Source: a virus
Reading direction: 5' to 3' (one strand)
IMG/VR virus record: IMGVR_UViG_3300045007_000107
Coordinates: 1-64,000 of that record
DNA length: 64,000 nucleotides
In this document: piece by piece, positions 2-62,415 of the stretch
Layout: each line of letters opens with the position of its first letter
Position numbering within the stretch: the stretch's first letter is position 1
The notes under the pieces: generated by a model
Database searches by the model: none
Told to the model about the DNA's origin: nothing
The model's input: the letters and a program-made list of their open reading frames with translations, nothing else
Program-made: the position numbers and the translations under genes

Positions 2-376
2 ATCGAATGGGCCGTCAAGAATTGGGAGCTTGTCCGCCGCAAGATATCGAACACCGACAAGCCGATTGGCCCGCCCGTCCCCGACATGCGGTACGTGGTC
101 TATCAGATCAGCCGCATCCACACCGCCTACCGACAGAACCGAGACGCCGCAACCCTCGATCTCTCGAAACGCCGACAGTCCGTGCAGCCGGCTGCAAGCG
201 AACCGCCCGCCTCCCCGGCCCCTAAGCTCCCCGCTCGCACCGCACTAGCCCACAAGCCCGCCACAACGCCCCGCAAGCCTCTCCCCAAACGTCCCCCGCC
301 CTCCCCCCAGCAAACCGACGCCGTTCGCGAACGCTACGGCCTCCCCCGGTTTGAGGACATCAGGAAGTCCCGCTAA
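2..376 (+). CDS. hypothetical protein, 5'-truncated (possible replication initiator by position)
   Basis: Frame open from base 2; stop overlaps next start (TAATG); upstream of loader-like gene and DnaB. Confidence 0.6.
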   Translation: MEWAVKNWELVRRKISNTDKPIGPPVPDMRYVVYQISRIHTAYRQNRDAATLDLSKRRQSVQPAASEPPASPAPKLPARTALAHKPATTPRKPLPKRPPPSPQQTDAVRERYGLPRFEDIRKSR

Positions 377-918
377 TGGAACCCGAAGAACTTCACGGCT
401 TGCTCAACGCCGCCAAGGTCCCCTACCGGTTCTGGAACTCGCAACTCTCGGCAGACCCGGACTTGGATCGGCTCCGCGCTTACTTCCTCCCCGAGGCCGG
501 TCCCTTCGATGGCGACTTCGAAGCCGGTATGGGCGCGGTGTTCAACGGACGCAGCAACCTCCTGAACCGGGCTGTGCCGCTCGCGGCGCGGTCGATGGTC
601 CTCTATCGCAAAGAGATCGTGTACGCCGAACTCAACGATATCATCGAGGATCGTGACGAACCGGACAGCGAACGCCTGCTGTACACGGCGGCCTACGAGG
701 TCCAAGGTCTGGTTATCGATCAGTTCTACCAGAACGGGATCGAGTGCCCCTACGATGCTCGCCAGCGCCGCATCATCGAGAGCCTGATCCGCACGAGGAT
801 CAATGCGAAGATGCCGACGTACTTCGGCTCGTCCGCCTCGATCCAGATGGCGCACCCCTGGTGGAGCCCTGCCATTCTCTGGTTGATCTCGGAGCATACC
901 AGGGAGATCACCCTCTAA
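376..918 (+). CDS. DnaC/IstB-like helicase loader, degenerate AAA+
   Basis: AKVPYRF N-terminal motif, LVIDQF Walker-B-like, LIRTRINAKMPTYFGS sensor-like segment; no Walker A; coupled to DnaB. Confidence 0.55.
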   Translation: MEPEELHGLLNAAKVPYRFWNSQLSADPDLDRLRAYFLPEAGPFDGDFEAGMGAVFNGRSNLLNRAVPLAARSMVLYRKEIVYAELNDIIEDRDEPDSERLLYTAAYEVQGLVIDQFYQNGIECPYDARQRRIIESLIRTRINAKMPTYFGSSASIQMAHPWWSPAILWLISEHTREITL

Positions 919-2297
919 TGCCCGAGGCATCGCTTGGCGTCCAACTGATATCCAGCCTGCGGCGGACAGGCTCGACATCGGCTCTGCGTGAGATCGACCC
1001 CGAGAAGTTTTTCAGCGATCCTGTCGAGCGCGCCGCGTTCAACTGGCTGCGCGACTATGTGCTACAGTACCGGGCCTTCCCCACCCCGGCGCTGGTACGC
1101 CAGCACACAACGATCACGACTGTGCAGACGACGCAGCCTGTGCAGTTCTATCTCGATCAAGCCCGAGAGCGGGCCTTGTACTATACCTTTGTCCCGATCT
1201 ACGGGCAGTTGCGGGAGGCGATGGAAGCCGCCAACCCGAATGCCGTCCTAGAGGCGGCCAAGGAAATGTCGCGCGCTGCCTCTGGCTTGCAGCGGTCTGC
1301 AACCGACTACGTGACTCTCGACACGGCGCTCGACGCGGTGCGGGAGGACTACAACATCGCGCGGCTGTCCTCGACCCTGCGCGGCATTCCGACGTACTGG
1401 CCCTACGTGGACGAGATCACCTCGGGTTGGCAGAACGACGACCTGATCTCTATCGTCGGCCGCCCCGGCGTCGGCAAGACCTATATCCTGCTGCTACTCG
1501 CCTATGCAGCGTGGCTGAACGGGTATTCCGTCCTGTTCGGTTCCATGGAGCTAGGTATGCTCCAATTGGCGCGGAGGTTGTTTGGTCTCCATGCCCGTCT
1601 TAATCCCGATCTCATCCGTAAGGGACGCCTGTCTACCCAGGTCACCCATACCCTCGATGAGCAGATGTCAGGTATGCGTAACGGAGTACCGTTCAATATC
1701 ATCGTGGGCGGATTTCGAAAGTCAGTTGACACCTTCCGCGCTGTTGCGGAAGCAACTTCTCCCGATATCATCATCGTGGATGCGTCCTACCTGCTTAAGC
1801 CGACTAAGACACGAGCCGGTAGTCAGGGTCGCCGCGAACAGGTCTCTGACACCATCGAGGAACTTAAGACGCTTGCTCTCGACTTGCGCCGTCCCGTGCT
1901 ACAATCCGTCCAGTTCAACCGAAACGCGGTACCGCACGTTCGTCGTGGAGCAGGGGGTCGTGGAGGAGAAAACGGTCCGGGTGCGGGATCACAACGGGAG
2001 AGCCCTGATCAGGATCGGAACAACCCGGTGGCTCACCTTAGTCTTGAGAAAATCGGCGAGACCGATGTCATCGGACAGGCGTCGTCCATCGTACTTGGCA
2101 TTGCCAAACCGCCAGCACCGTACAGCGAGGTTCAGCGGTGGATTGCCTTCCTCAAGGGTCGCGAAGGAGAGCAGGGCGTTATCAAAGTCAACTACCGTTT
2201 TCAGCCGGTAAACTTTGATATGATACAGGTCGGTCACGACCCCGACACGAACGAGCGGGTGAACGCCGAGAACGAACACATCACCGGAATGCTGTGA
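918..2297 (+). CDS. dnaB: DnaB-like replicative helicase
   Basis: GIPT..VDEITSGW, Walker A GRPGVGKT, SMEL, IIVDASYL, VQFNR, KGREG; ATG 918 in TAATG overlap. Confidence 0.95.
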   Translation: MPEASLGVQLISSLRRTGSTSALREIDPEKFFSDPVERAAFNWLRDYVLQYRAFPTPALVRQHTTITTVQTTQPVQFYLDQARERALYYTFVPIYGQLREAMEAANPNAVLEAAKEMSRAASGLQRSATDYVTLDTALDAVREDYNIARLSSTLRGIPTYWPYVDEITSGWQNDDLISIVGRPGVGKTYILLLLAYAAWLNGYSVLFGSMELGMLQLARRLFGLHARLNPDLIRKGRLSTQVTHTLDEQMSGMRNGVPFNIIVGGFRKSVDTFRAVAEATSPDIIIVDASYLLKPTKTRAGSQGRREQVSDTIEELKTLALDLRRPVLQSVQFNRNAVPHVRRGAGGRGGENGPGAGSQRESPDQDRNNPVAHLSLEKIGETDVIGQASSIVLGIAKPPAPYSEVQRWIAFLKGREGEQGVIKVNYRFQPVNFDMIQVGHDPDTNERVNAENEHITGML

Positions 2298-2303
2298 GGA
2301 ACG

Positions 2304-2510
2304 ATGGCCCGAGACCCCAAGCCCTTCATGGTCCCCTGTCCGACGTGCAACGGCACACGCTTCGCTACACATGAGGACAGGCACATCGACACCCGTGCAG
2401 ACATCTGCAAGACTTGTGGCGGCGAGGGCGAGATCCCTGCCGCCACTGGCACGACCGAGGAAAGCTCGTTCAATCACCGGATCGGCAAGGCTGGCGACAA
2501 GAGGGTCTAA
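2304..2510 (+). CDS. small zinc-finger protein (two CxxCxG motifs)
   Basis: CPTCNG and CKTCGGEG; RBS GAGGA. Confidence 0.7.
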   Translation: MARDPKPFMVPCPTCNGTRFATHEDRHIDTRADICKTCGGEGEIPAATGTTEESSFNHRIGKAGDKRV

Positions 2511-2512
2511 TC

Positions 2513-2770: not shown

Positions 2771-2784
2771 GACGGAACCCTGTA

Positions 2785-5586
2785 ATGCCCCTGCGTCAGT
2801 TCAAGAAGCCAAGCTCTAGCCTTGCATCCGTCTGCAAGCTGCCGTGGATGGGCAACGAGCGCGGGTCGATCATGGTCGTGGTCGATCCCGTTATCGTGGC
2901 CGAAGAGGATCAGATCGAGCGCGTTCGCAAGCCCCTGAATTCCCACTTCCTCGACACCCTGGCTCCCCACATGCGAGAGGCGGGCATCAAGGGGCAGGAC
3001 TGCGTCTTCATCTCCGCTTGCCGTCCCATGACGAAGGACACCTTCGACCGCGACAGCAAGCTCGGCAACATCATCAAGGAAGACCACGACCTGTTTCTCT
3101 CGGCGTGGTCCGCCGTCAAGCCGAAGCTGATCATCACCCTCGGCAAGGCCGCAGCGCGACAGGTTATGAACCGCGCGGTCAAGGTCACGAAGGTTCGGGG
3201 CGTTGCATTCGACAGCCCGGCCCTCGGGTGCCCTGTCATGCCGTGCCTCGGTCTCGCTCACATCCTGCGAGTGCCTGAGCACATCGAGACGTTCGCCGCT
3301 GACATCAAGGAAGCCGGCCGTATCGTTCGTGACAAGTTCACGATCAAGGAAATCGAAACGGTCAAGGACTACCGGTGGACGACCGACCTGTCCGAACTTA
3401 TCGAGACGGTGAAGCAGTATCGTCGCGAGGGCAAGCGGCTGGTGCTCGGGCTCGACACCGAGTCCTCTAGTTTCGGCGCGTCTGAGTTCCCGCACTGGTA
3501 CGTCACCGAGACCAAGGTGCTGACGGTGCAGCTTACGCCGCGCGAGGGCTTGAGCTACGTCGTCCCGCTCAACTATCCCGGCTATCCCGTCTCGGACGTG
3601 ACGCGCCGAAAACTGATCTTTCAGCTTAAGGAAATACTAGAGGACCCCATCGTCGGGTGCGTGGGCCAGAACATCAAGCATGACTGGCTACAGTGCAAGG
3701 TAAAGCTCGGCATCAAGTTCCACATCGAGGATGACACCATCATGCTCGTTCACATGCTGAACGAGAACATGATCAGCAAAACGCTGGAAGACATCTCTCG
3801 TATCTACATTCCTCAAATGGCAGGGTACAAAGATGCGTTCGAACGAAAAGGCTACGACAAGTCGCGCATGGACCTTGTTCCTGCTGACGACATTCTTGCT
3901 TATTCCGGCGCTGATAGTGACGTTGTTCTGCGTCTTCGCGATATTCTCCTTCCTAAACTTAAGGCCGACGCCAAGCTTTGGAATTGCTATAGCCGGGTTG
4001 TGTTGCCTGCAATACGCGCTTTTTGCAACGTGGAACAGGAAGGTTTTCGGATTAACCGAAAAGCGCTTGGAGAGCTATATCAGAAGGTCGCGGCGCATCA
4101 GGCCGAGCAATACAAGAAACTGATCGACGCGATCCCGCAGACGATTAAGGATCAGTTCAAGGATACCGGTGTTGGCGTGAAGCCGACCCGTAAGGCGCTA
4201 CAGATCGCATGGCTGTTCGAGCATCCAGACGGTATGCGTCTCAAGCCTCGCACGTTCACCAAGACGGGCGAGATCTCCGCATCCAGTAAGCTGCACTTCC
4301 CGTACTTCGTGAACGCTCAGCCAATCGTCAAGACGCTGATCGATTACGTCAAGAACCAGAAGATGCTCGAAACCTTCATCGGGAAGGACGGACACTATGA
4401 CAGCGAAACCGGCCAGTGGATTGCGCCTACAGGTTTCTGGAAGTACATTTTTAACGAGTATGTCCGGCCTTCTTACCTCCTACATGGCACTGTCACGGGA
4501 CGTTCAAGCTCTCGTGATCCAAACGGACAGAACTTTCCAAAACGAGGCACATTCGCGAAGGCTTATCGAGCAGTTTTCGAAGCGCCACCAGGGTACCTCC
4601 TTGTTGAGGCAGACTATTCACAGCTTGAGCTTCGGATCGCAGGAATACTGTCTAAGGAACCCACATTCCTTAGTATCTACGCGTCAGGGGGCGACATTCA
4701 CTGTGCCACTGCGGCAGTGGTTATGGGAATTAGCCTCGAAGCCTTCATGCGACTCAAGGTCGATGACCCTGAGCAATTTGCACTCATGCGTTATCGGGCC
4801 AAGGCTGTAAACTTCGGCTTCATCTACGGCATGGGTTGGCGGAAGTTCATCGTGTACGCCAAGACGGAGTACGACATCGATTACAGCGAGGCAGAGGGCA
4901 AGCGTATCCGTGCGGCGTTCTTCGGCAAGTACAGCGCCATCGAAAGCTGGCACATCAAGGTCAAGGAATTCGTAAGGAAGCACCGCTATGTTCGCGCTAC
5001 TGATGGCCGCATCCGCCACCTGCCTGCTGTCGTGGTGGATGACGACGGAGTTGCATCATCTGCTGAACGTCAGGCGATTAACTCACCCGTCCAGGGCTTC
5101 GGATCAGACCTCGGCCTTGTTGCTATCGCTCTACTCAATGAACGCATTGACCGCTCTAAAATGCGCATCATTGGTTTCGTCCACGACGCTATCATCTGCA
5201 TAGCCAAGATCGGGTATGAGATGGAAGCGGCGCGGCTGATCAAGAAAACGATGGAAACCCTACCCCTCAAGGAATGGTTCGGTTTCGAGCCGCCCATCCC
5301 GTTCAAGTCGGAGGTTGCTATCGGTCACAATCTGGCAAAGACCATCGAACTCAACGACAACTGGATCGAGGACAAGCGGGTGCATAGCTTTGAGCAGATC
5401 AAGGCGCTCGACGCAGCCGGTGCGGCCAAGGGTAAACTCAGGAAGTCGCCAGACAAGCGTCACTTGCAGATAGCTGCAAGCGCGGCGCAGCGAAAGGCGG
5501 ATCGTATGCTGGCGATACCCCCGAAGCACACCCCCGCTCGCCTGCCCCTTCGCAAGGTCACGCTCGGCGCACGGAGGGCCGCATAA
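2785..5586 (+). CDS. polA: family A DNA polymerase with N-terminal UDG-like domain and 3'-5' exonuclease
   Basis: ExoI LDTES, ExoII QNIKHD, ExoIII YSGAD; TVTGRSSS, motif A DYSQLELR, motif B RAKAVNFGFIYG, motif C VHDA; N-term KPKLIITLG..A / TKVRG UDG fold. Confidence 0.97.
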   Translation: MPLRQFKKPSSSLASVCKLPWMGNERGSIMVVVDPVIVAEEDQIERVRKPLNSHFLDTLAPHMREAGIKGQDCVFISACRPMTKDTFDRDSKLGNIIKEDHDLFLSAWSAVKPKLIITLGKAAARQVMNRAVKVTKVRGVAFDSPALGCPVMPCLGLAHILRVPEHIETFAADIKEAGRIVRDKFTIKEIETVKDYRWTTDLSELIETVKQYRREGKRLVLGLDTESSSFGASEFPHWYVTETKVLTVQLTPREGLSYVVPLNYPGYPVSDVTRRKLIFQLKEILEDPIVGCVGQNIKHDWLQCKVKLGIKFHIEDDTIMLVHMLNENMISKTLEDISRIYIPQMAGYKDAFERKGYDKSRMDLVPADDILAYSGADSDVVLRLRDILLPKLKADAKLWNCYSRVVLPAIRAFCNVEQEGFRINRKALGELYQKVAAHQAEQYKKLIDAIPQTIKDQFKDTGVGVKPTRKALQIAWLFEHPDGMRLKPRTFTKTGEISASSKLHFPYFVNAQPIVKTLIDYVKNQKMLETFIGKDGHYDSETGQWIAPTGFWKYIFNEYVRPSYLLHGTVTGRSSSRDPNGQNFPKRGTFAKAYRAVFEAPPGYLLVEADYSQLELRIAGILSKEPTFLSIYASGGDIHCATAAVVMGISLEAFMRLKVDDPEQFALMRYRAKAVNFGFIYGMGWRKFIVYAKTEYDIDYSEAEGKRIRAAFFGKYSAIESWHIKVKEFVRKHRYVRATDGRIRHLPAVVVDDDGVASSAERQAINSPVQGFGSDLGLVAIALLNERIDRSKMRIIGFVHDAIICIAKIGYEMEAARLIKKTMETLPLKEWFGFEPPIPFKSEVAIGHNLAKTIELNDNWIEDKRVHSFEQIKALDAAGAAKGKLRKSPDKRHLQIAASAAQRKADRMLAIPPKHTPARLPLRKVTLGARRAA

Positions 5587-9616: not shown

Positions 9617-11176
9617 GTGCCCGAACTTGTCCCCTACCTCGATGCCCTGTTCTATGTGCCTCTCACGAAAGCCGGTAACCTGCCGGCTCTCATGAAGAGG
9701 CTTCGTATCCGTCTTGAGCGGGACGACAGGAAAGATGTGGTTACGGACGAGTTCGGGGAAGAGAAAGACGAAACGGCCGAGGCAGACGAGATCCACTGTT
9801 ACGATCTGTCTCGGCCGGGCTACATCGGCGTCCCGCGTGCCTTCGGTCTCGACAAGTTCGGGCACCTCGGCTTCGTGGATCGGACAGCCAAACCGCTTCG
9901 GCGGTTCTATAAGTTTCCGAGAGTGCTCCGTCCGCGCGACCCGGTACAGGCCGACTTCTGGCATCACCTTGCAGCCGTCTGCAACGGACCACGACCAGTC
10001 GATGTCGTGTTCAATGCGGTTACTGGCGCGGGTAAGACCGAAACTGCCCTGTACATCATTGCGCACGAGTTACAGATCCCGACCCTGATCACCGTGCCAA
10101 CGAACAAGCTGCGGCGTCAGTGGTACCAGCGCATCGAGAGATACTTCGGTCGCGAGTGGTGCGAGCGGTACGTGGGCCACATCCAGCAAAACAAGATGGA
10201 CTACAAGGGACGGCTGATTGTGCTCGGTCTCGCGCCCAGCCTCGCCTTCCGCACCTATCCGCCAGAGTTGTGTCGTTATTTCGGGTGCCTGTGGGGCGAC
10301 GAGTTCCACAAGATCGGTGCCCCAAGAATGTCACAAATCTTCTTTAAGTATCCTGCCGCGATACGAGTAGGCGGGACGGCCACGAACCGGCGTGATGCGC
10401 TCAGGAAAATGTGCGACCTGCACATGGGAGTGCCGCGTGTCAAATCCCGACAGGAGGTTATGAAGCCACTCGTTCACGTGGTGTCGCACAGAACGGACCT
10501 GCCTGCTGGCTTTGAGATATCTTCGCCCTTCACGGTGAGATCGTTTCTAGCCCGCAGTAAGGAACGTAATCAGTTACTCGCACGACTGATTTATGAGCGC
10601 GGGTTCTTACGGGGACGTAACGTACTGTTCCTATCTGATGACACGAGACAACTGCAACGCTTGCAGGAAATACTCGTGCATACCCACGGCGTGCCGCCCG
10701 AGGCGGTAGGACTGATCGTGGGCGAGTATTACACGGGCCGTTGGCGCACGACGCGTACGGGGAACCGTGTAAAAGAAAAGCTCAAGATGACCGAAAAGGA
10801 GCAAGATCGTGTCGCGGCAGAATGTCAGATTGTGGGCGCCACTTATGGCATATTTGATACTGGCGCTGACGTTGCTCGGCTTGATATGGGCGTTGAGTGT
10901 ACCCCGCGTTCGAACGTACGTCAGGCAATGGGGCGAGTACAGCGCCTTATGGACGGGAAGCCCACCGTCGAGTGGTACAGCATCTTCGACCAAGTATTCT
11001 GGTACGACCCGGATGCCCTGGCACAGTCACGCGCTAATGGTAGCTTCGCCGCTCCCGTAGCCCCGCAACTAGAAAAGCTCAAAGACCCGGAAGCTCAGAA
11101 CCGACAAAGGATGGCATCCTTCAATGATCAGGGCGGCCGGGTCGTTGTATTCAAGGGGTTCGACAATGCCAATTGA
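9617..11176 (+). CDS. SF2 DExH helicase (UvsW-like)
   Basis: AVTGAGKT, DEFH, TAT, TGADV, QAMGRVQR. Confidence 0.92.
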   Translation: MPELVPYLDALFYVPLTKAGNLPALMKRLRIRLERDDRKDVVTDEFGEEKDETAEADEIHCYDLSRPGYIGVPRAFGLDKFGHLGFVDRTAKPLRRFYKFPRVLRPRDPVQADFWHHLAAVCNGPRPVDVVFNAVTGAGKTETALYIIAHELQIPTLITVPTNKLRRQWYQRIERYFGREWCERYVGHIQQNKMDYKGRLIVLGLAPSLAFRTYPPELCRYFGCLWGDEFHKIGAPRMSQIFFKYPAAIRVGGTATNRRDALRKMCDLHMGVPRVKSRQEVMKPLVHVVSHRTDLPAGFEISSPFTVRSFLARSKERNQLLARLIYERGFLRGRNVLFLSDDTRQLQRLQEILVHTHGVPPEAVGLIVGEYYTGRWRTTRTGNRVKEKLKMTEKEQDRVAAECQIVGATYGIFDTGADVARLDMGVECTPRSNVRQAMGRVQRLMDGKPTVEWYSIFDQVFWYDPDALAQSRANGSFAAPVAPQLEKLKDPEAQNRQRMASFNDQGGRVVVFKGFDNAN

Positions 11177-11684: not shown

Positions 11685-12596
11685 ATGGCTCTCGCTCCCC
11701 GTTCCGGCGCTGCCGCTCCGAAGGCCGCCGCTCCTGCCAAGGCCGCTCCCGCCAAGGCCGCCGCCCCCGCCGCCAAGGCTTCCGTGCAGCCGGCTGCAAG
11801 CACCAAGACCGAACTCAAGGCGACTACGACCACGGTCACCAAGACCCTACTGGAAAACGGCAAGATCAAGGGCGAGCCCGTCGTCGCCGAGAGCATCGAG
11901 ATCAACCCGTTCGTCACCGCGACCGCCTCCACCTCCATCGGCCTCAAGTTCCGCAAGAACATGGGCAACTTCGAAGGTGCCGAGATCTCGGTCCACGTCT
12001 CGATGCCGCACTACGTCGAGGAAGCCGAGGGCGCGGCGGCTCAGGTCTCCGAGCGGGCTCGCGAGCTTCTCGAAACGCAGTTCGCTGAATTCGACTTCGA
12101 TCAATTCAAGGGCGAGATCGTCGGCGGCGCGGACTTCGCGGCCGATCCCGAGGGCGACGCGGCCGTGATCGAGGAAGAAACCTCCGGGGAGGCCGCCGAG
12201 GAAGAGGGCGGCGAGATGACGGCCGATTGGGTCATGGAGCAGGAACGCGACATGCTGGTCGAGGTCATCACGACCAACGAACTCGAAATCGATCCCGACG
12301 ACTACCCGGATGACGACGACCTCAAGTCCATGATCGTCGCCAGCCTGTTCCCCGACGAAGAGGGCGCCGCCGAGGAAGGCGCTGCTGCCGATGGCGACGC
12401 TGCTGCCGAGGAAGCCTCTCAGGGCTACACCGAGGAAGAACTGAACGCGGCGACCATCGACGAACTCAAGGAAGTCTACGCCGACTGGAACATCGGCACC
12501 TTCCCGGCCTACAACTCGAAGAACCAGGCCGTCGTCAAGAAAACCGTCATCAAGAAGATCCTCGCCCACCAAGAGACGATGCTCGCGGCCTCCTAA
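11685..12596 (+). CDS. acidic hypothetical protein with Ala/Lys/Pro N-tail
   Basis: Strong codon bias; NMGNFE..ISV motif; E/D-rich. Confidence 0.8.
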   Translation: MALAPRSGAAAPKAAAPAKAAPAKAAAPAAKASVQPAASTKTELKATTTTVTKTLLENGKIKGEPVVAESIEINPFVTATASTSIGLKFRKNMGNFEGAEISVHVSMPHYVEEAEGAAAQVSERARELLETQFAEFDFDQFKGEIVGGADFAADPEGDAAVIEEETSGEAAEEEGGEMTADWVMEQERDMLVEVITTNELEIDPDDYPDDDDLKSMIVASLFPDEEGAAEEGAAADGDAAAEEASQGYTEEELNAATIDELKEVYADWNIGTFPAYNSKNQAVVKKTVIKKILAHQETMLAAS

Positions 12597-14324: not shown

Positions 14325-14831
14325 ATGACGGACCGGTGGGTGTGCCTCTCGCGGAAACACGACATATGGACGGTTATTGACGAAGAGTTATGGCCGTTCA
14401 TAAGTCGCTGGAACTGGAACTACGCACGGTCTGGTACTTCTCCACAGAAGGTCTATGCCAAGCGTAACGAGGGTAAGGCACGCACACCGGTCCTAATGCA
14501 CCGAGCGATCCTGTTTCACGTCAACCCACTACCGACGTGTATGCAGGGTCGCAACGGTAACGGTAGACAAAAGTTCGTTTGCGATCATGAGGACGGCGAC
14601 AGCCTCAACAATCGATTAAGTAATCTCCGCTGGCTTACAAAGGCGGAGGATATTGTGAATAGCTGGAACAATCGGTTTAACTCCGAAGGGCAGTTGCTTA
14701 AAGCCAGCCTTCGCGAGCAAGCTCTACAGCAACTCGGGCTCGACGTTTCGATGTTCCTGCCCGAGAACAACGATAATCAACTGATCTTACCGGAACATAC
14801 CTATGCCAAATCCGTTCTTGGACCGGGCTAA
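14325..14831 (+). CDS. free-standing HNH endonuclease
   Basis: MHRAI...DHEDGDSLNNRLSNLR. Confidence 0.85.
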   Translation: MTDRWVCLSRKHDIWTVIDEELWPFISRWNWNYARSGTSPQKVYAKRNEGKARTPVLMHRAILFHVNPLPTCMQGRNGNGRQKFVCDHEDGDSLNNRLSNLRWLTKAEDIVNSWNNRFNSEGQLLKASLREQALQQLGLDVSMFLPENNDNQLILPEHTYAKSVLGPG

Positions 14832-16132: not shown

Positions 16133-16778
16133 GTGCATCGTGGGGATCGATATCTCCCTCACCAACACGGGCCTGTTGGTGTTCCGGTGCGAGGGCGACG
16201 ACGGCTTCGTGAGCGAGCGGGCCAACATTCTCACAGAGCCGACCTTCCCTATCGAAGTGCGACAGCTTCATGTTGTCCACAACATCGTGCGGCTTGTTCT
16301 GCGCTACGTTGAGAAGTACGGGGAAATCGGAGTAATCATTGAGGGGTATAGTACCTCGCGCTTTGCAGGTAAGCTCTTTGAGCGTGTCGAAATTACTGCA
16401 ATGGTCAAATATATTCTCTCGTCCATTCATGGCGTTCGGCTCTATACTGCACGGGCGAAAAGCGTCAAAGCTTTCATGGGTAAAGGCAACTACGACAAAG
16501 CTCAGATGGCAAAAGCTGCACTCAATCGCTATGGCTTTGTTGCCGACAACGAGCACGTCGTGGACGCCTACTGCCTCGCGCGTTACCTGCACGCCTACAT
16601 CCACGGAAAGGATTTAAGCATTGAATTCGTGCAATACCCCTTCGTAGACGCTGCACTCTTGCAGCCGTCTGCACGCCCCGAAAATAAGGATTGCGCTTCT
16701 CCGTTGACAAAAAAATTACGGCGCATTACCTTACCAACTCGGTCGCACCCAGCCACCGCCCGCGCATTCAGCGCTTAA
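16125..16778 (+). CDS. ruvC: RuvC-like resolvase
   Basis: IVGIDISLTNTG, IIEG, VKAF.GKGN.DK..M, DNEHVVDAY; GTG start inferred. Confidence 0.88.
   Translation: MCECIVGIDISLTNTGLLVFRCEGDDGFVSERANILTEPTFPIEVRQLHVVHNIVRLVLRYVEKYGEIGVIIEGYSTSRFAGKLFERVEITAMVKYILSSIHGVRLYTARAKSVKAFMGKGNYDKAQMAKAALNRYGFVADNEHVVDAYCLARYLHAYIHGKDLSIEFVQYPFVDAALLQPSARPENKDCASPLTKKLRRITLPTRSHPATARAFSA
16704..16732 (+). promoter_or_regulatory. sigma70-type promoter
   Basis: TTGACA-N17-TACCTT. Confidence 0.7.
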
Positions 16779-16795
16779 TGGAAAGCGAACACATC

Positions 16796-18130: not shown

Positions 18131-18153
18131 CCGCTTGCAGCCGTCTGCACGAC

Positions 18154-18199: not shown

Positions 18200-18511
18200 A
18201 TGCCTCTGCTGCGCCGTCCCCGCCCGCGCAAGCTTATCCCCTGGATCGCGCCCACGCCCGAAAGCGTCGCGGCAAAGCTCCGATGCGACGACCCCGACAA
18301 CATCTCTGAGGTCCGCTGCCCCATGTGTCTCGGCCGGGGCGCGTGGGATTGGAACAGTAAGGTTCCCTGCCCGACATGTGGTGGCCTACGCAAGGTATCT
18401 CGGCTACAATATGAGCGGTTCGGGAAGACACTCGCGGACCCGGCAAAGGTACGAACCTTGTCGGCACGAGTGGCCTTCCTCGTTAAGGCACGTATACCTG
18501 CGAGACTGTAA
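18200..18511 (+). CDS. zinc-finger protein
   Basis: CPMCLGRG, CPTCGG; RBS AGGAG. Confidence 0.7.
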   Translation: MPLLRRPRPRKLIPWIAPTPESVAAKLRCDDPDNISEVRCPMCLGRGAWDWNSKVPCPTCGGLRKVSRLQYERFGKTLADPAKVRTLSARVAFLVKARIPARL

Positions 18512-38331: not shown

Positions 38332-38499
38332 ATGTTCAAAGTACAGACGAAAGAGTATTCGCTCGGGCGGCGTTGGCAGGACCTTAAGTCCTTTCACCGC
38401 AATCGCTTCGTGACCGAAGAAGATGCATGGGCCTACGTCGAGAGCCTGGATCAGGACGGTGTTCGTGACACGGGGAATTTTCGGGTAGTGCCCGCGTAA
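38332..38499 (+). CDS. early small protein (55 aa, below ORF-track cutoff)
   Basis: Promoter, GUGCG hairpin, CGGAG, MFKVQTKEY...VVPA. Confidence 0.7.
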   Translation: MFKVQTKEYSLGRRWQDLKSFHRNRFVTEEDAWAYVESLDQDGVRDTGNFRVVPA

Positions 38500-38567
38500 C
38501 CCCTTGCAGCCATCTGCACGCTCGCGTATTACAGCTACGGGGCGTGCGGCCCCACGGAGCAAAGACC

Positions 38568-39168: not shown

Positions 39169-39242
39169 CCCTTGCAGCCGTCTGCACACGTGCTACCTTA
39201 GCCCCTGCCCCGTGCGGGGTTTCTTTTTGCGGAGCTACTGTT

Positions 39243-50565: not shown

Positions 50566-50589
50566 CGTTCTTGCAGCCGTCTGCACGTA

Positions 50590-51339
50590 TCAGCCGTAGA
50601 GGCTCTCGTCGTGAACGTCGCCCGCACCTTCCAGCAGCTTGTAGCCGTTCGCGGTGCGCTCGGCCTTCGGCGCCCGATCCGCCGAATGGTTCTGCCAGTA
50701 TTCCTTCGACAGGCCCCGGCGGACCATCGTGCCGTCCACGAGGGACTTGAGATGGGTGCGGCGGTAATACTTGTCGTCGGTGTTCGGGTTGTGCAGGAAG
50801 CCGGCGAGGAACTGGTCGCCGACCTTCACCGCCTTCACGCCGTCGCGGCTCTCGACCAGCAGAAGGCCCTCGGTCGGGCCGGTGCGGGGATCGACCTCGT
50901 GACCCTCGCCGATGGCGGCCTGGACGCCTCGCTTGTGAAGTTCCTGGGTCGCCGCCGCGTCATCGAGGTTCACGGCGTTCTTGCCGCCGTTGGTCGGATC
51001 GGTCGTCGTGTTCAGGATGTACTCGTTGTTGAGCGACGCCTTGTCCGCGTTCTCCACCTCGTCGCCGGTCTCGCGGGTCTCGTGGGAAACCGAACGACCG
51101 GTGTGGGGGTCGCCTTCGAGGTGCGTGCCGGCCGAGTCCTCGACCTTCTTCGTGTCGCCCTCGGCGGACTCGCCCTGGGAGTTGCGCTGCTCGGTCTCGG
51201 AGGTCTGCGCCTCTTGCGCCTGCTTGTTCTCCTCGGTACGGTCGGGAGCGTCGGCCGGCTTCTCGGTCGTGGGCGCCGGGGCAGTCGCGGTGGTGGTCGC
51301 ACCCGGCTTCGGGCCGGGGATCGTGGGTGTGCGGGCCAT
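50590..51339 (-). CDS. acidic hypothetical protein; only convincing minus-strand gene
   Basis: RBS AGGAGA, strong minus-strand codon bias, terminator after stop. Confidence 0.8.
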   Translation of the reverse strand: MARTPTIPGPKPGATTTATAPAPTTEKPADAPDRTEENKQAQEAQTSETEQRNSQGESAEGDTKKVEDSAGTHLEGDPHTGRSVSHETRETGDEVENADKASLNNEYILNTTTDPTNGGKNAVNLDDAAATQELHKRGVQAAIGEGHEVDPRTGPTEGLLLVESRDGVKAVKVGDQFLAGFLHNPNTDDKYYRRTHLKSLVDGTMVRRGLSKEYWQNHSADRAPKAERTANGYKLLEGAGDVHDESLYG

Positions 51340-51782
51340 GCTTGTGTCTCCTGACATCGCGGATGCGAGGCCAGTATGATAGTCCTGCCTACATGCGTAC
51401 GCAATGGGTTCTATTTTTTAGCAGGAGTGTATGCCGTGTCGAGAGCTAAGTCGAAGCCTGCCAAGCCCCAGGTCTGCACCGATGTGCGCGAATGCGCCGA
51501 GGAAGTGTTCCGTCAACTCAGTACACCGGGCTACGGGATCGACAGTATCCGCTACCCGGACGCCCTTCGCTCTAAGGCTAAAGCCTTACTGGTACACGAG
51601 GGACGCATCCGCTATTGCTTTGCCAGAGGGCACCACGTTCCGTACGATGCGCCGCATTATGGGGCACAAAGTAGTGCCGGATCGGCCCCGAGAGGACGCA
51701 GATCATTCGGACAAAGAGCTTGATCCGACAAACAATCTCGCATATACTATGTCAGCCTTGCAGCCGTCTGCATGTTCAAAGG

Positions 51783-52409: not shown

Positions 52410-52410
52410 C

Positions 52411-53852: not shown

Positions 53853-55475
53853 ATGCCCGAGCAGTACCGGCCCCGTCTCCGCATTCTGATTGACCCCGTC
53901 TACGTGCAGATCAGCAATCTGTCGGGGTCGTCCACCTACCGCAAGTACGTCACTCTTGTCCGTGAGCTAGTCGCTCGCGGTCATTATTGTTTTTGGTGTG
54001 TCCCCGACGCCGAAGGTTACGTGCCCGATGAGATCGAGAACCATCCTAACGTTGGCATTATTCGCACTGGCGTTATCCAAGACCAGTTCGTGGTCGATGG
54101 ACTCGTCACGGATGACTTCTTCAACCTCTTCAACCGGGTCGCGGGCAAGTACCACATCGACGTTCTTTGCACATCCAGAAACAGCCTTGCAGCCTATTAT
54201 AAACGACTGTTGGAGCCGCCCCGGTTCCACGACAATCGTGGTGACTATACCGACAAGGGATACGGCGTCCCGACTGTTCTCATCGAAGAGTTTCCTCAGA
54301 CCCGAGAGCGACAGAATTCGGGTGAGGCTTACTGGCTTATGCAAACTCTAGGGTACATCGCCAGCGACAAGACGGTGTTCCTGTCCGGCCACAACCGTTC
54401 GGAAGTGGTCAAAGAGATGGCGGACTATATCGTCACCTCCAAGGTCAAGAGGTTCATCGATGAGCAAGCGCGTGTCATCCCCGCCGGCATCGAATGTGAT
54501 CAGCTTGACACGATCTACGACCCGAACCGCTGGCAGCACGAAGAAGGCTTTCGGGTGGTCTCTATTGGCCGCATTTTTGGCGTCTCTTATTCTGAATACG
54601 TGCCTTGGTTTGATTATCTGTTCAAGAGTGGACTGTCTGACGCGCAGCTTACCGTCTCGCTCTCTGGCGCCCTTGGTGGCCCCATGCGGAACAAGCTCAA
54701 GAAACTAGGGTTCGACTTCGGCAACGTGGGCCGGCAGTACCGCATCCTCGAAAATAACAACCGGGCAAACTTCATCCGACAGCTTCGGGGGTATCACGCC
54801 TTCGTCTGCCCGCTAAGTCACCTCGACCATCCTACGGGGCTTTTCGAAGCCATTTACATGGGCCTCCCCGGCGTCATGCCGGTCTCGGACTATCAGCGTA
54901 CGTTCTTCCATGACTGGCCCTGGGTTATCGAGCCCAAGGATAAGGCGCGTTTGCTCGCGCATCTTCGCTGGATCAGGGAGAACAAAGCCGAAGCGCGCGA
55001 GATGGTCCTACCGTGGCGCCAGCGTATCCGTGAGCAGTACAACGCGAAAGATCGGATTGGCGAACTCTGCGACGTGATCGAGGGGGCGGGTCGTGCTCAC
55101 ATCAACCGCTTTAAGACTTCTTCCGCTGTTCTTAAATTCTGCCGCGAACTTAAGGGCGTTAGTTACAGCTTTGCGGACGTTGTCGCGTTCCTCAAGGAAC
55201 AGGGCTACATGGGGATCAGTATCGGCGATATGTCGATACGCACGACGTTCACCTACGCACGCGGGGCTGTGCATCACGCCATGGGTATGGCTGGATACGT
55301 TGATGCTTGTAACGGCCCTGATGATCTGTTCGTGCGCCGAGACGTGTTCGACCGGGATTACCTCCCTGCGCCGATTGCTCCGCTCCCGCTAACGCAGGAA
55401 GAGAAAATCGATATCCCCTTGCAGACGGCTGCAAAGCCCGGTCTGCGCCGCTTCACCCCCACGAGGAAAGCCTAA
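53853..55475 (+). CDS. GT-B glycosyltransferase (putative DNA-modifying)
   Basis: VIPAGIE, VVSIGRI, AFVCP..D..TGLFEAIYMGLP (GT4-like acid-x7-E). Confidence 0.75.
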   Translation: MPEQYRPRLRILIDPVYVQISNLSGSSTYRKYVTLVRELVARGHYCFWCVPDAEGYVPDEIENHPNVGIIRTGVIQDQFVVDGLVTDDFFNLFNRVAGKYHIDVLCTSRNSLAAYYKRLLEPPRFHDNRGDYTDKGYGVPTVLIEEFPQTRERQNSGEAYWLMQTLGYIASDKTVFLSGHNRSEVVKEMADYIVTSKVKRFIDEQARVIPAGIECDQLDTIYDPNRWQHEEGFRVVSIGRIFGVSYSEYVPWFDYLFKSGLSDAQLTVSLSGALGGPMRNKLKKLGFDFGNVGRQYRILENNNRANFIRQLRGYHAFVCPLSHLDHPTGLFEAIYMGLPGVMPVSDYQRTFFHDWPWVIEPKDKARLLAHLRWIRENKAEAREMVLPWRQRIREQYNAKDRIGELCDVIEGAGRAHINRFKTSSAVLKFCRELKGVSYSFADVVAFLKEQGYMGISIGDMSIRTTFTYARGAVHHAMGMAGYVDACNGPDDLFVRRDVFDRDYLPAPIAPLPLTQEEKIDIPLQTAAKPGLRRFTPTRKA

Positions 55476-55617: not shown

Positions 55618-56481
55618 ATGGCCCTCGCTAAGAAGCTTCCTCCGAAGGTCGCGCCGAAGAAGCCGGCTCCGCTCAAGCGTTCGACCCTGGAAATTTTCGA
55701 CATTCCGGTCGATGATCTGGTCGGCCACGAGGACAACCCGAACGAGCAGGACGAAGCAACCTTCGACCAGCTTGTCGAGGGCATCCGCGCGGACGGGTTC
55801 GATGAGCCGATCCAAGTCGTTCCTATCGAGGGCGGCACGCACGCCGGCAAGTGGCAGATCTTCTCGGGTCACCACCGCGCCAAGGCTGCGAAAGTCCTCG
55901 GCCTCAAGGTCATCCCCGCTGTCGTCAAGAAGGGCTGGAACGAGGACAAGGTCAAGATCGAACTCGTGCGCCGGAACCGGCTGCGCGGCAACCTCAATTC
56001 CGAGAAGTTCACGAAGCTCTACAACGAACTCAAGACGCGTGGCTGGGACGAGTCCATGCTCAAGTTGCAGATGGGCTTCACAAAAGAGGACGCGTTCAAG
56101 AAGGTCTACAAGTCCATCGAAAAGGCGATGACGCCCTCGCAAAAGAAAAAGCTCGAAGAGAGCAAGGAGAGCATCAAGTCGGTGGACGGCCTTTCGTCCG
56201 TGCTCAACGACATCTTCAAGAACCATGGCTCCGACCTCGACCACGGCTTTGTCGTGTTCAACTTCGGGGGCAAGGAGATCCACTACATCGAGACCGACAC
56301 CTCGCTCAACAAGCAGGTCAAAGCGCTCGAAGAGGAGTGCCGCAACAAGGGCATCACCCTGGCGGACGCCTTCAAGCACCTGCTGAACCGCCCGAACTTG
56401 AGCGGCGTGAAGAAGTCCGGTACAGTCCAAGCTCCCGCGAAGGTGAAGCCCAATGCTAAGACATCGTCGGCCGCTGCGTAA
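55618..56481 (+). CDS. ParB/Srx N-terminal-domain protein
   Basis: NPN..D..FDQL..GI..GF.EPI.V, IFSGHHRAKAA, N..RG. Confidence 0.88.
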   Translation: MALAKKLPPKVAPKKPAPLKRSTLEIFDIPVDDLVGHEDNPNEQDEATFDQLVEGIRADGFDEPIQVVPIEGGTHAGKWQIFSGHHRAKAAKVLGLKVIPAVVKKGWNEDKVKIELVRRNRLRGNLNSEKFTKLYNELKTRGWDESMLKLQMGFTKEDAFKKVYKSIEKAMTPSQKKKLEESKESIKSVDGLSSVLNDIFKNHGSDLDHGFVVFNFGGKEIHYIETDTSLNKQVKALEEECRNKGITLADAFKHLLNRPNLSGVKKSGTVQAPAKVKPNAKTSSAAA

Positions 56482-57088: not shown

Positions 57089-59211
57089 TCATCATCTCCG
57101 ACAAGCCCCCGACCAAACCGCCGCTCCGTAAAGTGCCCCCGCCCAAAAGGCGGGGTCCTGTCGTTGAGGCGACCGGTCTCAGCTTGCAGCCGTCTGCACG
57201 CCCGAAGGTCAGCCCGGCCGATACCGGGTTCTCTCTGGACGAGCGCACGCAAATGGTGCTCGATCAAATCCGCGAGGAAGCGGAATTCCTAGAGGATCGG
57301 GAGACGCGCGACCTCTGGCTCGACGGCTGCAACACCTTCGAACAGACCGGTGATATCGCCTCGCTCATCCAGCTTACAGCCTACCGTCGCAGGATCGTCC
57401 CCATTGACGAGTTCATGTACGGGCGGACCTATCTCGGGCTCAAGCGCGATGAGATCTATCCCGGCGTGATCGAAGCCTGCGAGGCTATCGACACCGACCA
57501 GTTTACCGAAGTCATCCTCAAGGGCGCGTTGGGCGGCGGTAAGACGACCATCGGCAACTTCATGCTGGCGCGCAGCCTTTACAAGATCTCCTGTATGCGG
57601 CACCCGCAGTCGAGCTTCGGCATCAAGTCGGGATCGTCGCTGATCTTCACCATCCAATCGATCCGCAAGTCTACCGCGCAGAAGGCGGTGTTCGAAGAGT
57701 TCGGCGGCGTCATCAACAAGTCGCCCTACTTCAAGCGGACCTACCCGTACGATCCGCTGATCACGTCGAGCATGATCTTCCGTGAGCAGAACGTGACAAT
57801 CATGCCGGTCGCAACCTCGACCACGGGCGCCATTTCGATGAACGTCATCGGCGGCATCTTGGACGAGGTGAACTTCATGCAGAAGATCCTCAAGTCCACG
57901 TCGCAGCACGCCGACGACCAGGGCGCGTTCGATCAGGCGAAACAGATCTACCAGAACATCGCCCGCCGCCGTAAGTCCCGCTTCGCCAAGCACGGCAAGC
58001 TGCCGGGCATCCTGTTCCTGATCTCGTCCTCGCGCTTCCCCGACGACTTCACCGAGAAGAAAGCGGCCGAAGCTGCAATGTGCGGCGGCACCGACCCGAC
58101 CATCTATGTTTATTCGAAGGCGGTGTGGGAGTCCAAGGGTCGCGACAACTTCCTGCCTGAGAACTTCCGGGTGCAGGTTGGTAACGCCTCGCTGCGGTCC
58201 AAGATCCTCGAAGAGGGCGAAGCCTGCGATCCCGAGTGCCAGGAGCTTCACGTTCCGCTCGACTTCCTCGATGAGTTTAAGGACGATCTGGACGGGTGTA
58301 TTCGCGACTTCGCGGGCGTGTCTACGCTGTCTACCAATCCGTTCTTTACGAACCGCGACCGCATCAACGAGTGCATGAAGCTGGGAGCCGAGCATGGGTA
58401 CCAGAGCCCCTTCGACCTGGAAACATACGACTTCTCCCTTGGGATACCGCACCCCAATGTACACCGACTGCGAGCAGACATTGATGCTCCTCGCACAGTT
58501 CACATCGATCTCGGCCTTAAGCGGGATGCTTGTGGGATCACTATTGCTCACCTTGCCGGCCAGAAGCTTGTTAAGAGAGTGGACCCCGTAAACGGCTACG
58601 AGGAGAGCCACCTGCTGCCGGTCATCGGCGTGGATTGCTCTCTTCGTGTTGTGCCGCCGAAGGGCGGGGAGATCCAGTTCGCGCATATCCGCAGCTTCAT
58701 CCTCATGATGCGGGATCGTTACAAGATACCGATCAAGTGGGTCACGACGGACGGCTTCCAGAGCGTGGACACCCGCCAGATCCTCAAGACACAGGGGTTC
58801 CTTACCGACTACCGATCGGTCGAAGACTTGGAGTCCTATCGCAGCCTGCGCGACACGATCTATGAGCAACGGCTGTTGCTGCCGAACAATGAATTCCTCA
58901 AGCAGGAGTTGGCCGGTCTTGAGTACAAGCGAACTCCCACTAAAGATAAGATCGATCACCGTGCTAATGGCACTAAGGATATGGCTGACGGCCTCTGCGG
59001 CGCTGTTGCATTTCTGCTGGAAAGGAAAGCTGCCTGGATCGGGCTAGGTCCGGTGCCGCAGCGACACCCGATGCAGGGGCACAACAATCCGCCCTCAGAC
59101 ACCGAGGTCGCACGCGACAACGCCCATCTCGCCGGCACCCAAGCCCAGGGGACTGTACGGCGTGCAACCATGCGAAAATCGGTATTTAGGCGACGTTCCG
59201 TGCGCAAATAG
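57085..59211 (+). CDS. terL: terminase large subunit
   Basis: GALGGGKT, ILDEVNF, ISS, HIDLG..D, DGFQS, KIDH...KDMADG. Confidence 0.93.
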   Translation: MIIISDKPPTKPPLRKVPPPKRRGPVVEATGLSLQPSARPKVSPADTGFSLDERTQMVLDQIREEAEFLEDRETRDLWLDGCNTFEQTGDIASLIQLTAYRRRIVPIDEFMYGRTYLGLKRDEIYPGVIEACEAIDTDQFTEVILKGALGGGKTTIGNFMLARSLYKISCMRHPQSSFGIKSGSSLIFTIQSIRKSTAQKAVFEEFGGVINKSPYFKRTYPYDPLITSSMIFREQNVTIMPVATSTTGAISMNVIGGILDEVNFMQKILKSTSQHADDQGAFDQAKQIYQNIARRRKSRFAKHGKLPGILFLISSSRFPDDFTEKKAAEAAMCGGTDPTIYVYSKAVWESKGRDNFLPENFRVQVGNASLRSKILEEGEACDPECQELHVPLDFLDEFKDDLDGCIRDFAGVSTLSTNPFFTNRDRINECMKLGAEHGYQSPFDLETYDFSLGIPHPNVHRLRADIDAPRTVHIDLGLKRDACGITIAHLAGQKLVKRVDPVNGYEESHLLPVIGVDCSLRVVPPKGGEIQFAHIRSFILMMRDRYKIPIKWVTTDGFQSVDTRQILKTQGFLTDYRSVEDLESYRSLRDTIYEQRLLLPNNEFLKQELAGLEYKRTPTKDKIDHRANGTKDMADGLCGAVAFLLERKAAWIGLGPVPQRHPMQGHNNPPSDTEVARDNAHLAGTQAQGTVRRATMRKSVFRRRSVRK

Positions 59212-60953: not shown

Positions 60954-61482
60954 CCTACGGTCGGATGCCTTGCTCAAGGAACAGGGCTTTACCGCCGAAG
61001 ACATCGAGTTTATGCACGAACTGGCACAAGCCTACTGGACCTATCTTGTCGAGTACGACGAAGCCGAACAAAAGCGGGATTGGGACGCGCACAACCGGCT
61101 TGAGGGCGTCATCCAAGTGACCGAGTTCCAGCTTCTTTATCGCGGGCTCCACCCTCGCGAGATTCCCTTCGACGCACTTGTCGCGATCACCCGTGCTCCC
61201 CTGGACGGTCGCGGCGACGTAGCGGACCAGATCACCGCCAAGTACAAAGAACGCATCCACAACCCCGCGACCGCGATGCGGGCGAACTGCGTGGTTTGCA
61301 TGGGCGGCTCAACCGCTGAAATTCGACGCTGTGGCGCGGTCAACTGCCCGCAGTGGCCTTTCCGCCTCGGAACTAACCCTCTCCGTAATGCCATACTGCC
61401 GCCTGTAGCACTCACGGTCATTGAGGACGACGACGTTCTCGATATCGATGAGTCCACGGACAGCGGCGACGCAAGCGAGTAA
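60934..61482 (+). CDS. Cys4 protein (CxxC..C..CP.W.FR.GTNP)
   Basis: AMRANCVVCMGG..EIRRC...NCPQWPFRLGTNP. Confidence 0.75.
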   Translation: MALTHTDLRSDALLKEQGFTAEDIEFMHELAQAYWTYLVEYDEAEQKRDWDAHNRLEGVIQVTEFQLLYRGLHPREIPFDALVAITRAPLDGRGDVADQITAKYKERIHNPATAMRANCVVCMGGSTAEIRRCGAVNCPQWPFRLGTNPLRNAILPPVALTVIEDDDVLDIDESTDSGDASE

Positions 61483-61875
61483 GTGATGCCTATTCAACGT
61501 CGCACCGTCGATCCGAACGCTATACCTGTCGTCGTCGCCAAGAAGGAATACACCCCCGATTCAAAGGCGCGGCTGCGGCATGTGCCGAAGCAGAACCTCC
61601 GTACCGCCGCCTTTGTCGGACTCGGTGCGAACGAGGAACCAAAGCTGATCTCGATTGACGACATCGCGACCTGTCTGCGCCTCGCCAACAACCCCGGCTG
61701 GCACACCGAGGAAGCCACGCGTAATCGGATCAAAGGGCGCTTGAGCGCGATCCGTGCTTTCTGTATCCTTTGTGCTGACGGCCCGAAGGGTGCGCGCATG
61801 TGCCCGCAAGTTACCTGCCCCCTGTGGGCCTTCCGAATGGGGACCAACCCCTTCCATCGCAAAGGCAAGAAGTAA
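61483..61875 (+). CDS. Cys4 protein, paralogue of preceding gene
   Basis: AIRAFCILC..G...MC..TCPLWAFRMGTNP. Confidence 0.75.
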   Translation: MMPIQRRTVDPNAIPVVVAKKEYTPDSKARLRHVPKQNLRTAAFVGLGANEEPKLISIDDIATCLRLANNPGWHTEEATRNRIKGRLSAIRAFCILCADGPKGARMCPQVTCPLWAFRMGTNPFHRKGKK

Positions 61876-62069
61876 TGACGCTCCCCGGCTACAAGCACAC
61901 CGGCATCTGCTCGACCTACGAAAGGCTGATCACGATGTACGGGCACCAGAAGTTCCCGCAAAACCCCGATGATGGCACGCGTGTGGACGACCATCACGGC
62001 GTCTGGATCTACAGCGAGGCCGAGGGGGTGTGGTGGTACTTCGAGCCGAAAACGAAGGAAGCAGCGTAA
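61875..62069 (+). CDS. small hypothetical protein
   Basis: Coupled TAATG at both ends. Confidence 0.6.
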   Translation: MTLPGYKHTGICSTYERLITMYGHQKFPQNPDDGTRVDDHHGVWIYSEAEGVWWYFEPKTKEAA

Positions 62070-62359
62070 TGGCGCAATACGAAGACGATATCGAGTTCTG
62101 GCGGGAGCACGCCATCCCGCAATTCGCCGTAGCTCAAGAGATGTGTCGGCAAGGCTCGTGGAAAATCGAGCACGATACGGGCAAGCTCCAATACGACCTG
62201 CTCTATGGCGGTGATTTGATCTATCCTGGCTACATGGTTATGATCATCGAGAGGGGCGGGATCACCCGTACCGGTATGATCGTCAAGCGGCAACACCTGG
62301 GCGGGGACGTGTGGCGGTTCTACGTGGACTTGCCTCCGCTGGATAATAAAGACGGATAG
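62069..62359 (+). CDS. hypothetical protein
   Basis: RBS AAGGA, coupled. Confidence 0.65.
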   Translation: MAQYEDDIEFWREHAIPQFAVAQEMCRQGSWKIEHDTGKLQYDLLYGGDLIYPGYMVMIIERGGITRTGMIVKRQHLGGDVWRFYVDLPPLDNKDG

Positions 62360-62415
62360 GTTCACTTGCAGCCGTCTGCAAACTACGATGGTTCCCGGAT
62401 TTCCTGGGGATCATC

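Follow-up and report, generated by a model that had tools for sequence, protein, structure and literature searches.

An evenly spaced palindrome array with lineage-specific dialects in a clade of 80–130 kb siphoviruses, and its candidate reader

We analyzed a 64-kb window, which is the first part of the 101.7-kb IMG/VR viral contig IMGVR_UViG_3300045007_000107 (completeness estimate 79%) from lake-water metagenomes. Four lake-water sequence sets compared with it consisted of contigs identical to the window and thus offered no variants, ends, or nicks, and no RNA data set was listed as containing it. From position 183 to 62380, this window carries a short palindrome, TGCAG-N4-CTGCA, approximately once per 1.3–1.4 kb, with no strand assigned, and related phages carry their own versions of it. 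Judging from the sequences, the palindromes on balance probably serve as docking sites, arrayed along the whole genome, for a phage-encoded, symmetric double-stranded DNA (dsDNA)-binding protein; as part of the same explanation, the array would be ancestral to a clade of 80–130 kb siphoviruses. Protein binding, the identity of the binder, and the purpose of the binding are what we infer from the features described below.

The palindrome array and its dialects

The window contained 45 exact copies of TGCAG-N4-CTGCA, where shuffled sequences would give 0.06 (maximum 1). Over the 101.7-kb contig, 62 perfect copies were detected, running on to the contig end, and the reversed control pattern gave none. 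Eight further sites in the contig had a mismatch in one arm and were located in the larger gaps; five of them fall within the window (2823, 25956, 37552, 38269, and, with some doubt, 4282). A first-pass annotation of this DNA had counted 49 copies between 183 and 62380, a count that we reproduced as the 45 exact copies plus the one-mismatch sites. An unbiased k-mer count made with no prior pattern also ranked this motif first. The extended consensus was c-K-TGCAG-[C/A]C-G[T/G]-CTGCA-M-g, a quasi-palindrome of 14–16 bp. On recount, the centers of the perfect window sites agreed exactly with the earlier tally (CCGT 23, ACGG 5, CCGG 5, CCAT 5, ACAT/ATGT 4, other 3).

The sites were spaced far more evenly than by chance. 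In the window, the coefficient of variation (CV) of the gaps was 0.44 for perfect sites and 0.41 for all sites, compared with 0.97 for uniform placement (P<5e-5). Gaps shorter than 400 bp were absent (perfect sites) or occurred once (all sites, 38269 to 38505), whereas 10.8–13.2 were expected, and the largest gap was 2.5–3.1 kb against 5.6–6.1 kb for random placement. The array was also more even than random draws from gene junctions (null CV 0.88–0.89). Thus, the under-dispersion claimed at first pass was borne out against both nulls, as were its single gap under 400 bp and its 2642-bp gap across polA, from 2823 to 5465. Gap CVs over six genomes (this contig, designated G000, plus G001, RcTiptonus, JP1, L338C, and SIO-2) showed the same tendency, at 0.49–0.74 versus ~0.96 for random placement, with this contig carrying the densest array among the lattice genomes examined. 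It appears that the phage is under selection for a site within ~1–2.5 kb of every point of its chromosome, as had been proposed, and this held in every relative examined.

Relatives were found through similarity of TerL and of a ParB-like protein, and the genomes compared were G000, G001, RcTiptonus, JP1, L338C, DLP5, SM1, SIO-2, RcZahn, and the uncultured contigs L187, L188, and L190. As far as these sequences go, the lattice is a clade-wide trait, and each lineage has its own dialect. The closest relative, L187 (glycosyltransferase 78% and ParB-like protein 64% identical), has TTGCAG-GTAC-CTGCAA in 9 copies in 19 kb. T[G/A]CAA-TCGA-TTG[C/T]A is used by G001 (39 copies in 90 kb), by many IMG/VR contigs, and by Rhodobacter phage RcTiptonus, whose form is TGCAA-TCGA-TTGCA. 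Agrobacterium phage JP1 has TGCAA-ACGT-TTGCA (34 copies in 97 kb), Rhizobium phage L338C has TGCAAC-N1-2-GTTGCA (60 copies in 110 kb), and Pseudomonas phage SM1 has TGCAA-RCGY-TTGCA (12 copies in 42 kb). Stenotrophomonas phage DLP5 and Rhodobacter phage RcZahn share TGCAA-TYAA-YTGCA (28 copies of TGCA-N6-TGCA in the 102 kb of RcZahn), and Vibrio phage SIO-2 has a degenerate but evenly spaced form in 26 copies. These dialects had not been recognized in the first interpretation, nor had the preferred orientation and the shaping of flanks and center by restriction-site avoidance that are described below. A literature search found none of these motif strings in connection with a phage, and the repeat goes unmentioned in the paper on the RcF phages (PMC8601537). 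A distant TerL relative, Maribacter phage Colly_1 (L209), is without the TGCA lattice and without a ParB_N domain, and has a repeat of its own, ATTAGGATCGACATC, in 7–8 copies in 41 kb.

Next, orthologous sites were compared between dialects. One site lies in the superfamily 2 (SF2) helicase gene at 9970–9983 (plus strand), just upstream of the Walker A motif, and encodes the peptide LAAVCN. In the same codon register, this contig reads cTT GCA GCC GTC TGC AAc and JP1 reads cTT GCA AAC GTT TGC AAt (LANVCN), and the G001 site occupies the same alignment column with a shift of 1 nt. Similarly, a site that encodes part of the glycosyltransferase C-terminal tail (55420–55433, plus strand) aligns base for base with the L187 site; arms and flanks are identical, the center is ACGG in one and GTAC in the other, and the surrounding DNA has diverged. 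Thus, orthologous sites hold their position while being retuned to the local dialect. A further site, at 57185–57198 (plus strand), falls at residue 34 of the 708-residue TerL, within its N-terminal tail; a site in this tail is likewise present in each of the four relatives compared.

We also analyzed whether the two halves of a site vary together. Of the 10 sites in L188, 9 had non-complementary bases at positions 5 and 10; the bases at positions 3 and 12 mixed freely in L190; and in RcZahn, TGCAA was combined with CTGCA. The flanks in this contig were mostly G..A within genes and T..C between genes, neither of which pairs. The 5-bp stem would contribute about −4.8 kcal/mol and did not fold better than shuffles (z −1.9 to +0.05). 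This independent variation of half-sites, with no hairpin covariation, indicated that the halves are read independently on duplex DNA. Furthermore, RcTiptonus and RcZahn infect one host strain and have two different dialects, which favors a phage-encoded reader. Taken as sequence evidence, half-site independence, in-place retuning, and the dialect difference on one host point to a phage-encoded symmetric reader of dsDNA. The dimeric protein proposed at first pass is therefore consistent with the anatomy of the sites as far as two-fold symmetry goes, but the orientation bias is unexplained by symmetry.

Placement of the sites and restriction-site avoidance

Gene calls based on codon usage placed 135 of 143 genes on the plus strand and approximately half of the sites within genes; in the window, ~23 sites were intragenic and ~27 intergenic. 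The earlier figures of 28 and 21 thus hold as an approximately half-and-half split and not as exact counts, because gene calling differs in the small-open reading frame (ORF) region at 27–38 kb. Among the genic sites of the contig, 24 of 31 share one frame, giving [V/L]QPSA[S/R] or [V/L]QTAA. Most genic sites lie within ~35 codons of a protein end, and internal sites are present in the tape-measure gene and in the gene of a 3595-aa tail protein. The earlier claim that selection acts on DNA rather than on peptide was supported.

Intergenic sites usually start 3–10 nt past a stop codon and are followed by either a terminator hairpin or a promoter-like −10 box. For example, the site at 18136–18149 (plus strand) begins 6 nt past a stop codon and stands directly upstream of a hairpin resembling an intrinsic terminator, a layout also seen at 15195, 34047, and 44369. 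The site at 29649–29662 (plus strand) begins 5 nt past a stop codon, and 16 nt separate its left half, TTGCAG, from a downstream TATTAT, which is followed by a GTGCG-loop hairpin and then by a ribosome-binding site. Together with those at 22414, 39173, and 47792, it possibly overlaps an early promoter. GTGCG-loop hairpins, which are boxB-like leaders, follow intergenic sites and precede the ribosome-binding sites of several early genes at 25189–25217, 29690–29710, 38540–38560, 39203–39220, and other positions. Another pair of sites, at 50572–50585 and 51759–51772 (span 50572–51772, no strand), brackets a minus-strand gene at 50590–51339. This gene (249 aa) is the sole well-scoring one on the minus strand, belongs to no Pfam family, and lacks homologues in relatives; the site at 51759 has a reverse-strand TAGTAT at 18 nt. 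With respect to transcription, site orientation was biased in every genome (44:13 in this contig, 18:3 in G001, and 9:0 in JP1). This preference is a bias and not a strict rule, and it is a feature shared with stoperators.

The composition of the sites was further compared with restriction-site avoidance. CTGCAG was absent from this contig, whereas 55 copies were expected, and GACGTC and GTGCAC occurred once each against 31 and 21 expected. CTCGAG (0 of 50 expected), CCGCGG (0 of 48), GTCGAC (0 of 47), and GGATCC (1 of 40) were likewise avoided. Of the 49 6-bp palindromes for which 8 or more copies were expected, 15 had no copy or one, and 6-bp palindromes in total amounted to 1170 against 1914 expected. 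Relatives show comparable avoidance but of other sets, such as GTAC in RcTiptonus (1 of 221 expected) and GGCC in SIO-2 (1 of 197). At the array sites, position −1 was never C and position +1 was never G, at least partly because either would create CTGCAG, so the specificity of a reader is not the sole cause. Similarly, the symmetric center ACGT, which is used by JP1, L188, and L190, is absent from this contig because it would create GACGTC; the center CCGT keeps one AC-type half and breaks the palindrome in the other. The sequence pattern suggests that new host restriction enzymes may drive dialect change.

This massive avoidance also makes bulk DNA modification unlikely, and we rejected such a role for the conserved glycosyltransferase on this ground together with the lack of a shared base-modification pathway. 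The glycosyltransferase itself (53853–55475) is the best-conserved protein of the clade, its 59–78% identity exceeding that of TerL and of the capsid protein. It stands in a block of constant order (DprA/SLOG-like, glycosyltransferase, small ORF, ParB-like, TerS, TerL), and the DLP5 genome encodes a sugar-nucleotide pathway immediately upstream.

Candidate readers and alternative explanations

By predicted fold, a ParB/KorB-like protein is the best candidate reader. Its gene (287 aa, 55618–56481, plus strand) stands between a 47-aa ORF, which follows the glycosyltransferase gene, and TerS and TerL, and it also neighbors TerS and TerL in G001, RcTiptonus, JP1, DLP5, and RcZahn. The protein has a ParB_N domain (37 bits) followed by a helical domain, and its AlphaFold2 model matches KorB (8qa9), Noc (7nfu), and ParB (6t1f) over 190–229 columns, including the DNA-binding domain. 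A ParB_N protein was found in eight lattice phages. At the aligned cytidine triphosphate (CTP)-motif positions, it has GHHRAKA for GERRxRA and RRNRLRG for ENLQR, such that Arg and Asn are kept but the catalytic Glu is not. A covariation between residues of its putative recognition helix and the dialect (TKED with TGCAG arms, TKEA with TGCAA) was suggestive, but phylogeny is a confounder and the center contradicts it, and we did not retain it.

Another candidate reader is a MerR/HTH_17-like protein (203 aa, 18511–19122, plus strand) that is syntenic in G001, RcTiptonus, and JP1; as a universal reader it was rejected, being present in four genomes only and not found in L338C or SIO-2. The other helix-turn-helix candidates of the first-pass annotation were not conserved across the lattice-bearing phages. 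A supposed ribbon-helix-helix (RHH) protein in an AAA+ module was also discarded, as Pfam gives DUF1257 and DUF2997 and no RHH. This module (AAA+ ATPase, DUF1257, DUF2997; contig 96198–99689) is kept in five of five compared genomes, and its ATPase is also found in SIO-2. No classical regulator was universal among the lattice phages compared, whose universal core consists of DnaB, PolA, primase, SSB, SF2 helicase, RecA, two resolvases, Cas4-like exonuclease, and TerL.

In the docking-site model that we favor, a dimer would read each half-site (K-TGCA-G plus one or two center bases) separately. Where intergenic space is lacking, sites would be written into tolerant protein tails and linkers, usually as [V/L]QPSA, and upon a change of dialect they would be retuned in place. 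The ParB/KorB-like protein beside the terminase genes would be the most likely reader; it would load at the sites and then spread or slide across roughly one gap between sites, so that the entire chromosome of the phage would be marked or coated, and it may act as an operator-binding protein at the subset of sites overlapping early promoters. From their 13-bp palindromic operators, KorB clamps slide over distances of up to 1.5 kb (PMC11790492), and by analogy this length scale is similar to the array spacing. A broader version of this model, which we put forward only tentatively, is that a large clade of virulent siphoviruses has a chromosome-wide 'self code', in which a loading site per 1.4–3 kb would allow a phage reader (a ParB/KorB-like clamp or another protein) to cover the whole genome, 30–80 sites and the specificity of the reader would co-evolve, and host restriction would force the change of dialect.

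Several observations weigh against the docking-site model or its preferred reader. A symmetric dimer does not predict the orientation bias. The replacement of GERR by GHHR and of EN..R by RN..R makes CTP-clamp chemistry uncertain. In SIO-2, neither Pfam nor a clade-specific hidden Markov model found ParB_N, although 26 degenerate sites are evenly spaced in its genome; thus, the earlier nomination of the gene at 55618 stands as to its KorB/Noc/ParB-like fold and is weakened by this lattice. L338C has no terminase-linked ParB-like gene and only distant ParB_N paralogues. Furthermore, this contig and L187 agree fully in the putative recognition helix and in the arms but differ at the center, which the helix therefore cannot explain. 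As to purpose, RcF phages are reported to be virulent (PMC8601537), which makes a role in lysogenic silencing unlikely.

Alternatively, the sites may be substrates of a sequence-specific phage enzyme, such as a nickase, a resolvase of branched intermediates, a terminase-linked nuclease for headful cutting, or a modification enzyme, that is needed nearby every 1–3 kb. We consider this possible but rather unlikely. The universal core comprises replication, recombination, and packaging genes and no universal classical regulator, the ParB-like gene, which lies within the TerS–TerL block, carries the annotation of a nuclease-type domain, and two-fold symmetric sites suit dimeric nucleases. The tolerance of headful packaging, a few percent of a ~100-kb genome, is also close to the inter-site distance. 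However, the defined left end of RcTiptonus does not lie at a palindrome but in a different repeat, by which we rejected the palindrome as a pac or cos cut site; moreover, the extreme restriction-site avoidance speaks against bulk modification, and no methyltransferase or base-modification pathway is common to the clade. Less probable still is a Chi-like self-mark for a helicase-nuclease, either the phage Cas4-like exonuclease with the SF2 helicase or host RecBCD/AddAB, at which degradation would stop and RecA would load within 1–2 kb while unmarked DNA would be destroyed. RecA, the Cas4-like exonuclease, the SF2 helicase, and resolvases are indeed present in all lattice phages, the spacing is even without long gaps as this mechanism requires, and the orientation bias resembles Chi polarity. 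Known Chi sites, however, are 5–8 nt long, asymmetric, and abundant in the host genome, whereas the array site is 14–16 bp, palindromic, and absent from the bacterial genomes scanned, so its symmetry would be unexplained.

A single-stranded hairpin, serving as a DNA priming or replication signal per Okazaki-fragment length or as an mRNA-processing or -stabilizing element, is very improbable. The spacing approximates the Okazaki-fragment length, nearly all genes are on one strand such that the sites are transcribed with a biased orientation, and the arm-to-arm distance in L338C (13 or 14 nt) would be tolerable for a loop. Nevertheless, the absence of compensatory changes, the mostly non-pairing K/M flanks, and the weak folding of the stem largely refuted it, and hairpins acting as terminators, as repetitive extragenic palindromic (REP) elements, in single-strand initiation, or as N4-type promoters were rejected on the same grounds.

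We regard as similarly remote a host reader (a regulator, a nucleoid protein, or the sigma-70 reader of the −35 box), or a host uptake or REP-like sequence acquired by the phage. The JP1 dialect contains a PurR/LacI-type box, and the TTGCAG of the left half is similar to a −35 box, with TAnnnT at 16–18 nt in 4 of 31 intergenic sites versus a 2% background. In contrast, none of the 31 genic sites has such a −10 box, and a consensus sigma-70 scan of 22–42 kb passed no lattice site and showed no promoter excess. The −35 reading thus fits a small intergenic subset only, which may still overlap promoters, and was rejected for the palindrome as such. The core GCCGTCTG is identical to that of the DNA uptake sequence (DUS) of Neisseria, and the density of the array, ~1 per kb in coding and non-coding DNA alike, is like that of DUS and of the Haemophilus uptake signal sequence (USS). 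However, DUS and USS saturate the host chromosome, whereas the array motif is defined by its palindromic arms, not by the DUS core, and is absent from the bacterial genomes scanned. Specifically, an 18-mer scan of one genome per species in 185,579 species gave 60 single matches, approximately the chance number, and no genome with multiple copies, which ruled out an uptake sequence or host REP-like repeat. The first-pass annotation had considered that the motif might be equally dense in the host as a REP-like element; these 185,579 genomes, which were scanned without the host of this phage being identified, did not bear this out, and the motif is phage-borne. Among the matches listed, an exact 14-mer scan of IMG/VR gave single chance ones, which were uninformative on this point. 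A host reader is also at odds with the different dialects of RcTiptonus and RcZahn on the same strain.

Known systems, implications, and further observations

The nearest published parallels are KorB with its OB operators, the dyads of Cluster O mycobacteriophages, and stoperators. KorB is a ParB-family, CTP-dependent sliding clamp and a global repressor with 12 OB operators on the IncP plasmid RK2 (PMC11790492). As in KorB-OB, ParB-parS, and Noc-NBS, a short palindrome is spread over the genome of a mobile element, with some copies at promoters and others far off or within genes, and, as with KorB-OB, the element itself codes for a ParB-family protein that combines an N domain with a helical DNA-binding domain. 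Unlike KorB-OB, the array is ~5 times denser (62–80 sites) and evenly spaced, and approximately half of its sites are in coding sequence; its carrier is a virulent-type phage and not a plasmid, GHHR replaces GERR, one lattice phage is without a ParB domain, and binding is here putative. In Cluster O mycobacteriophages, a 17-bp dyad, TGTTCGG-N3-CCGAACA, is described with 34 copies in Corndog and with function and binder unknown (PMC4351075). These dyads are similar in that, in the passages describing them, an invariant inverted repeat with a variable center occurs in tens of copies between genes and near gene starts of a siphovirus. Their sequence and lineage are unrelated, however, and the same passages report no meaningful orientation and describe no even spacing, no dialects in distant relatives, and no sites deep in conserved genes. 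The match is thus one of description and not a homologous family. Stoperators of L5 and Cluster A phages are 13-bp asymmetric sites in short intergenic gaps of temperate phages, bound by the immunity repressor gp71 as a monomer (PMC9283540, PMC6550527). The array resembles them in that stoperator phages carry ~1 site per 2 kb genome-wide, in a biased orientation and with one class overlapping an early promoter; it differs in being palindromic and often genic, and in that the cultured relatives are reported to be virulent.

If the docking-site explanation is true, the array would represent an undescribed layer of phage genome organization comparable in scope to parS/ParB or Chi. A phage protein that must dock every 1–3 kb would constrain protein sequences, gene order, and host range in a widespread group of 80–130 kb phages whose hosts span Rhodobacter, Rhizobium, Agrobacterium, Pseudomonas, Stenotrophomonas, and Vibrio. 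It would also provide a natural example of a reader shifting specificity in step with its dozens of binding sites, with the forbidden CTGCAG and GACGTC as a concrete selective force for dialect changes. Cultured relatives for direct testing are RcTiptonus, RcZahn, JP1, DLP5, SM1, L338C, and SIO-2, and the palindromes provide a simple signature for spotting clade members in metagenomes.

Outside the phages, TGCAG-N4-CTGCA was observed at 56, 2027, 3327, and 7927 in a 9-kb, plasmid-like contig of Methylobacterium trifolii (NZ_BPRB01000267.1). One of these sites lies ~110 bp upstream of parA, which is followed by an RHH gene, and another lies ~47 bp upstream of a serine resolvase gene. This contig shares no proteins with the phage, and the arrangement looks like an operator or centromere use of the same arms. 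Within the window, the proteins encoded at 11685–12596 and 16778–18130 have Lys/Ala/Pro-rich, histone H1-like tails, and the low-complexity DNA leads to cross-joins in metagenome contigs, which connect 11730, 16871, and 18080. Finally, an HNH_3 endonuclease gene at 14325–14831, between recA and the gene of a Holliday-junction resolvase, has no counterpart in the compared relatives and probably encodes a homing endonuclease.

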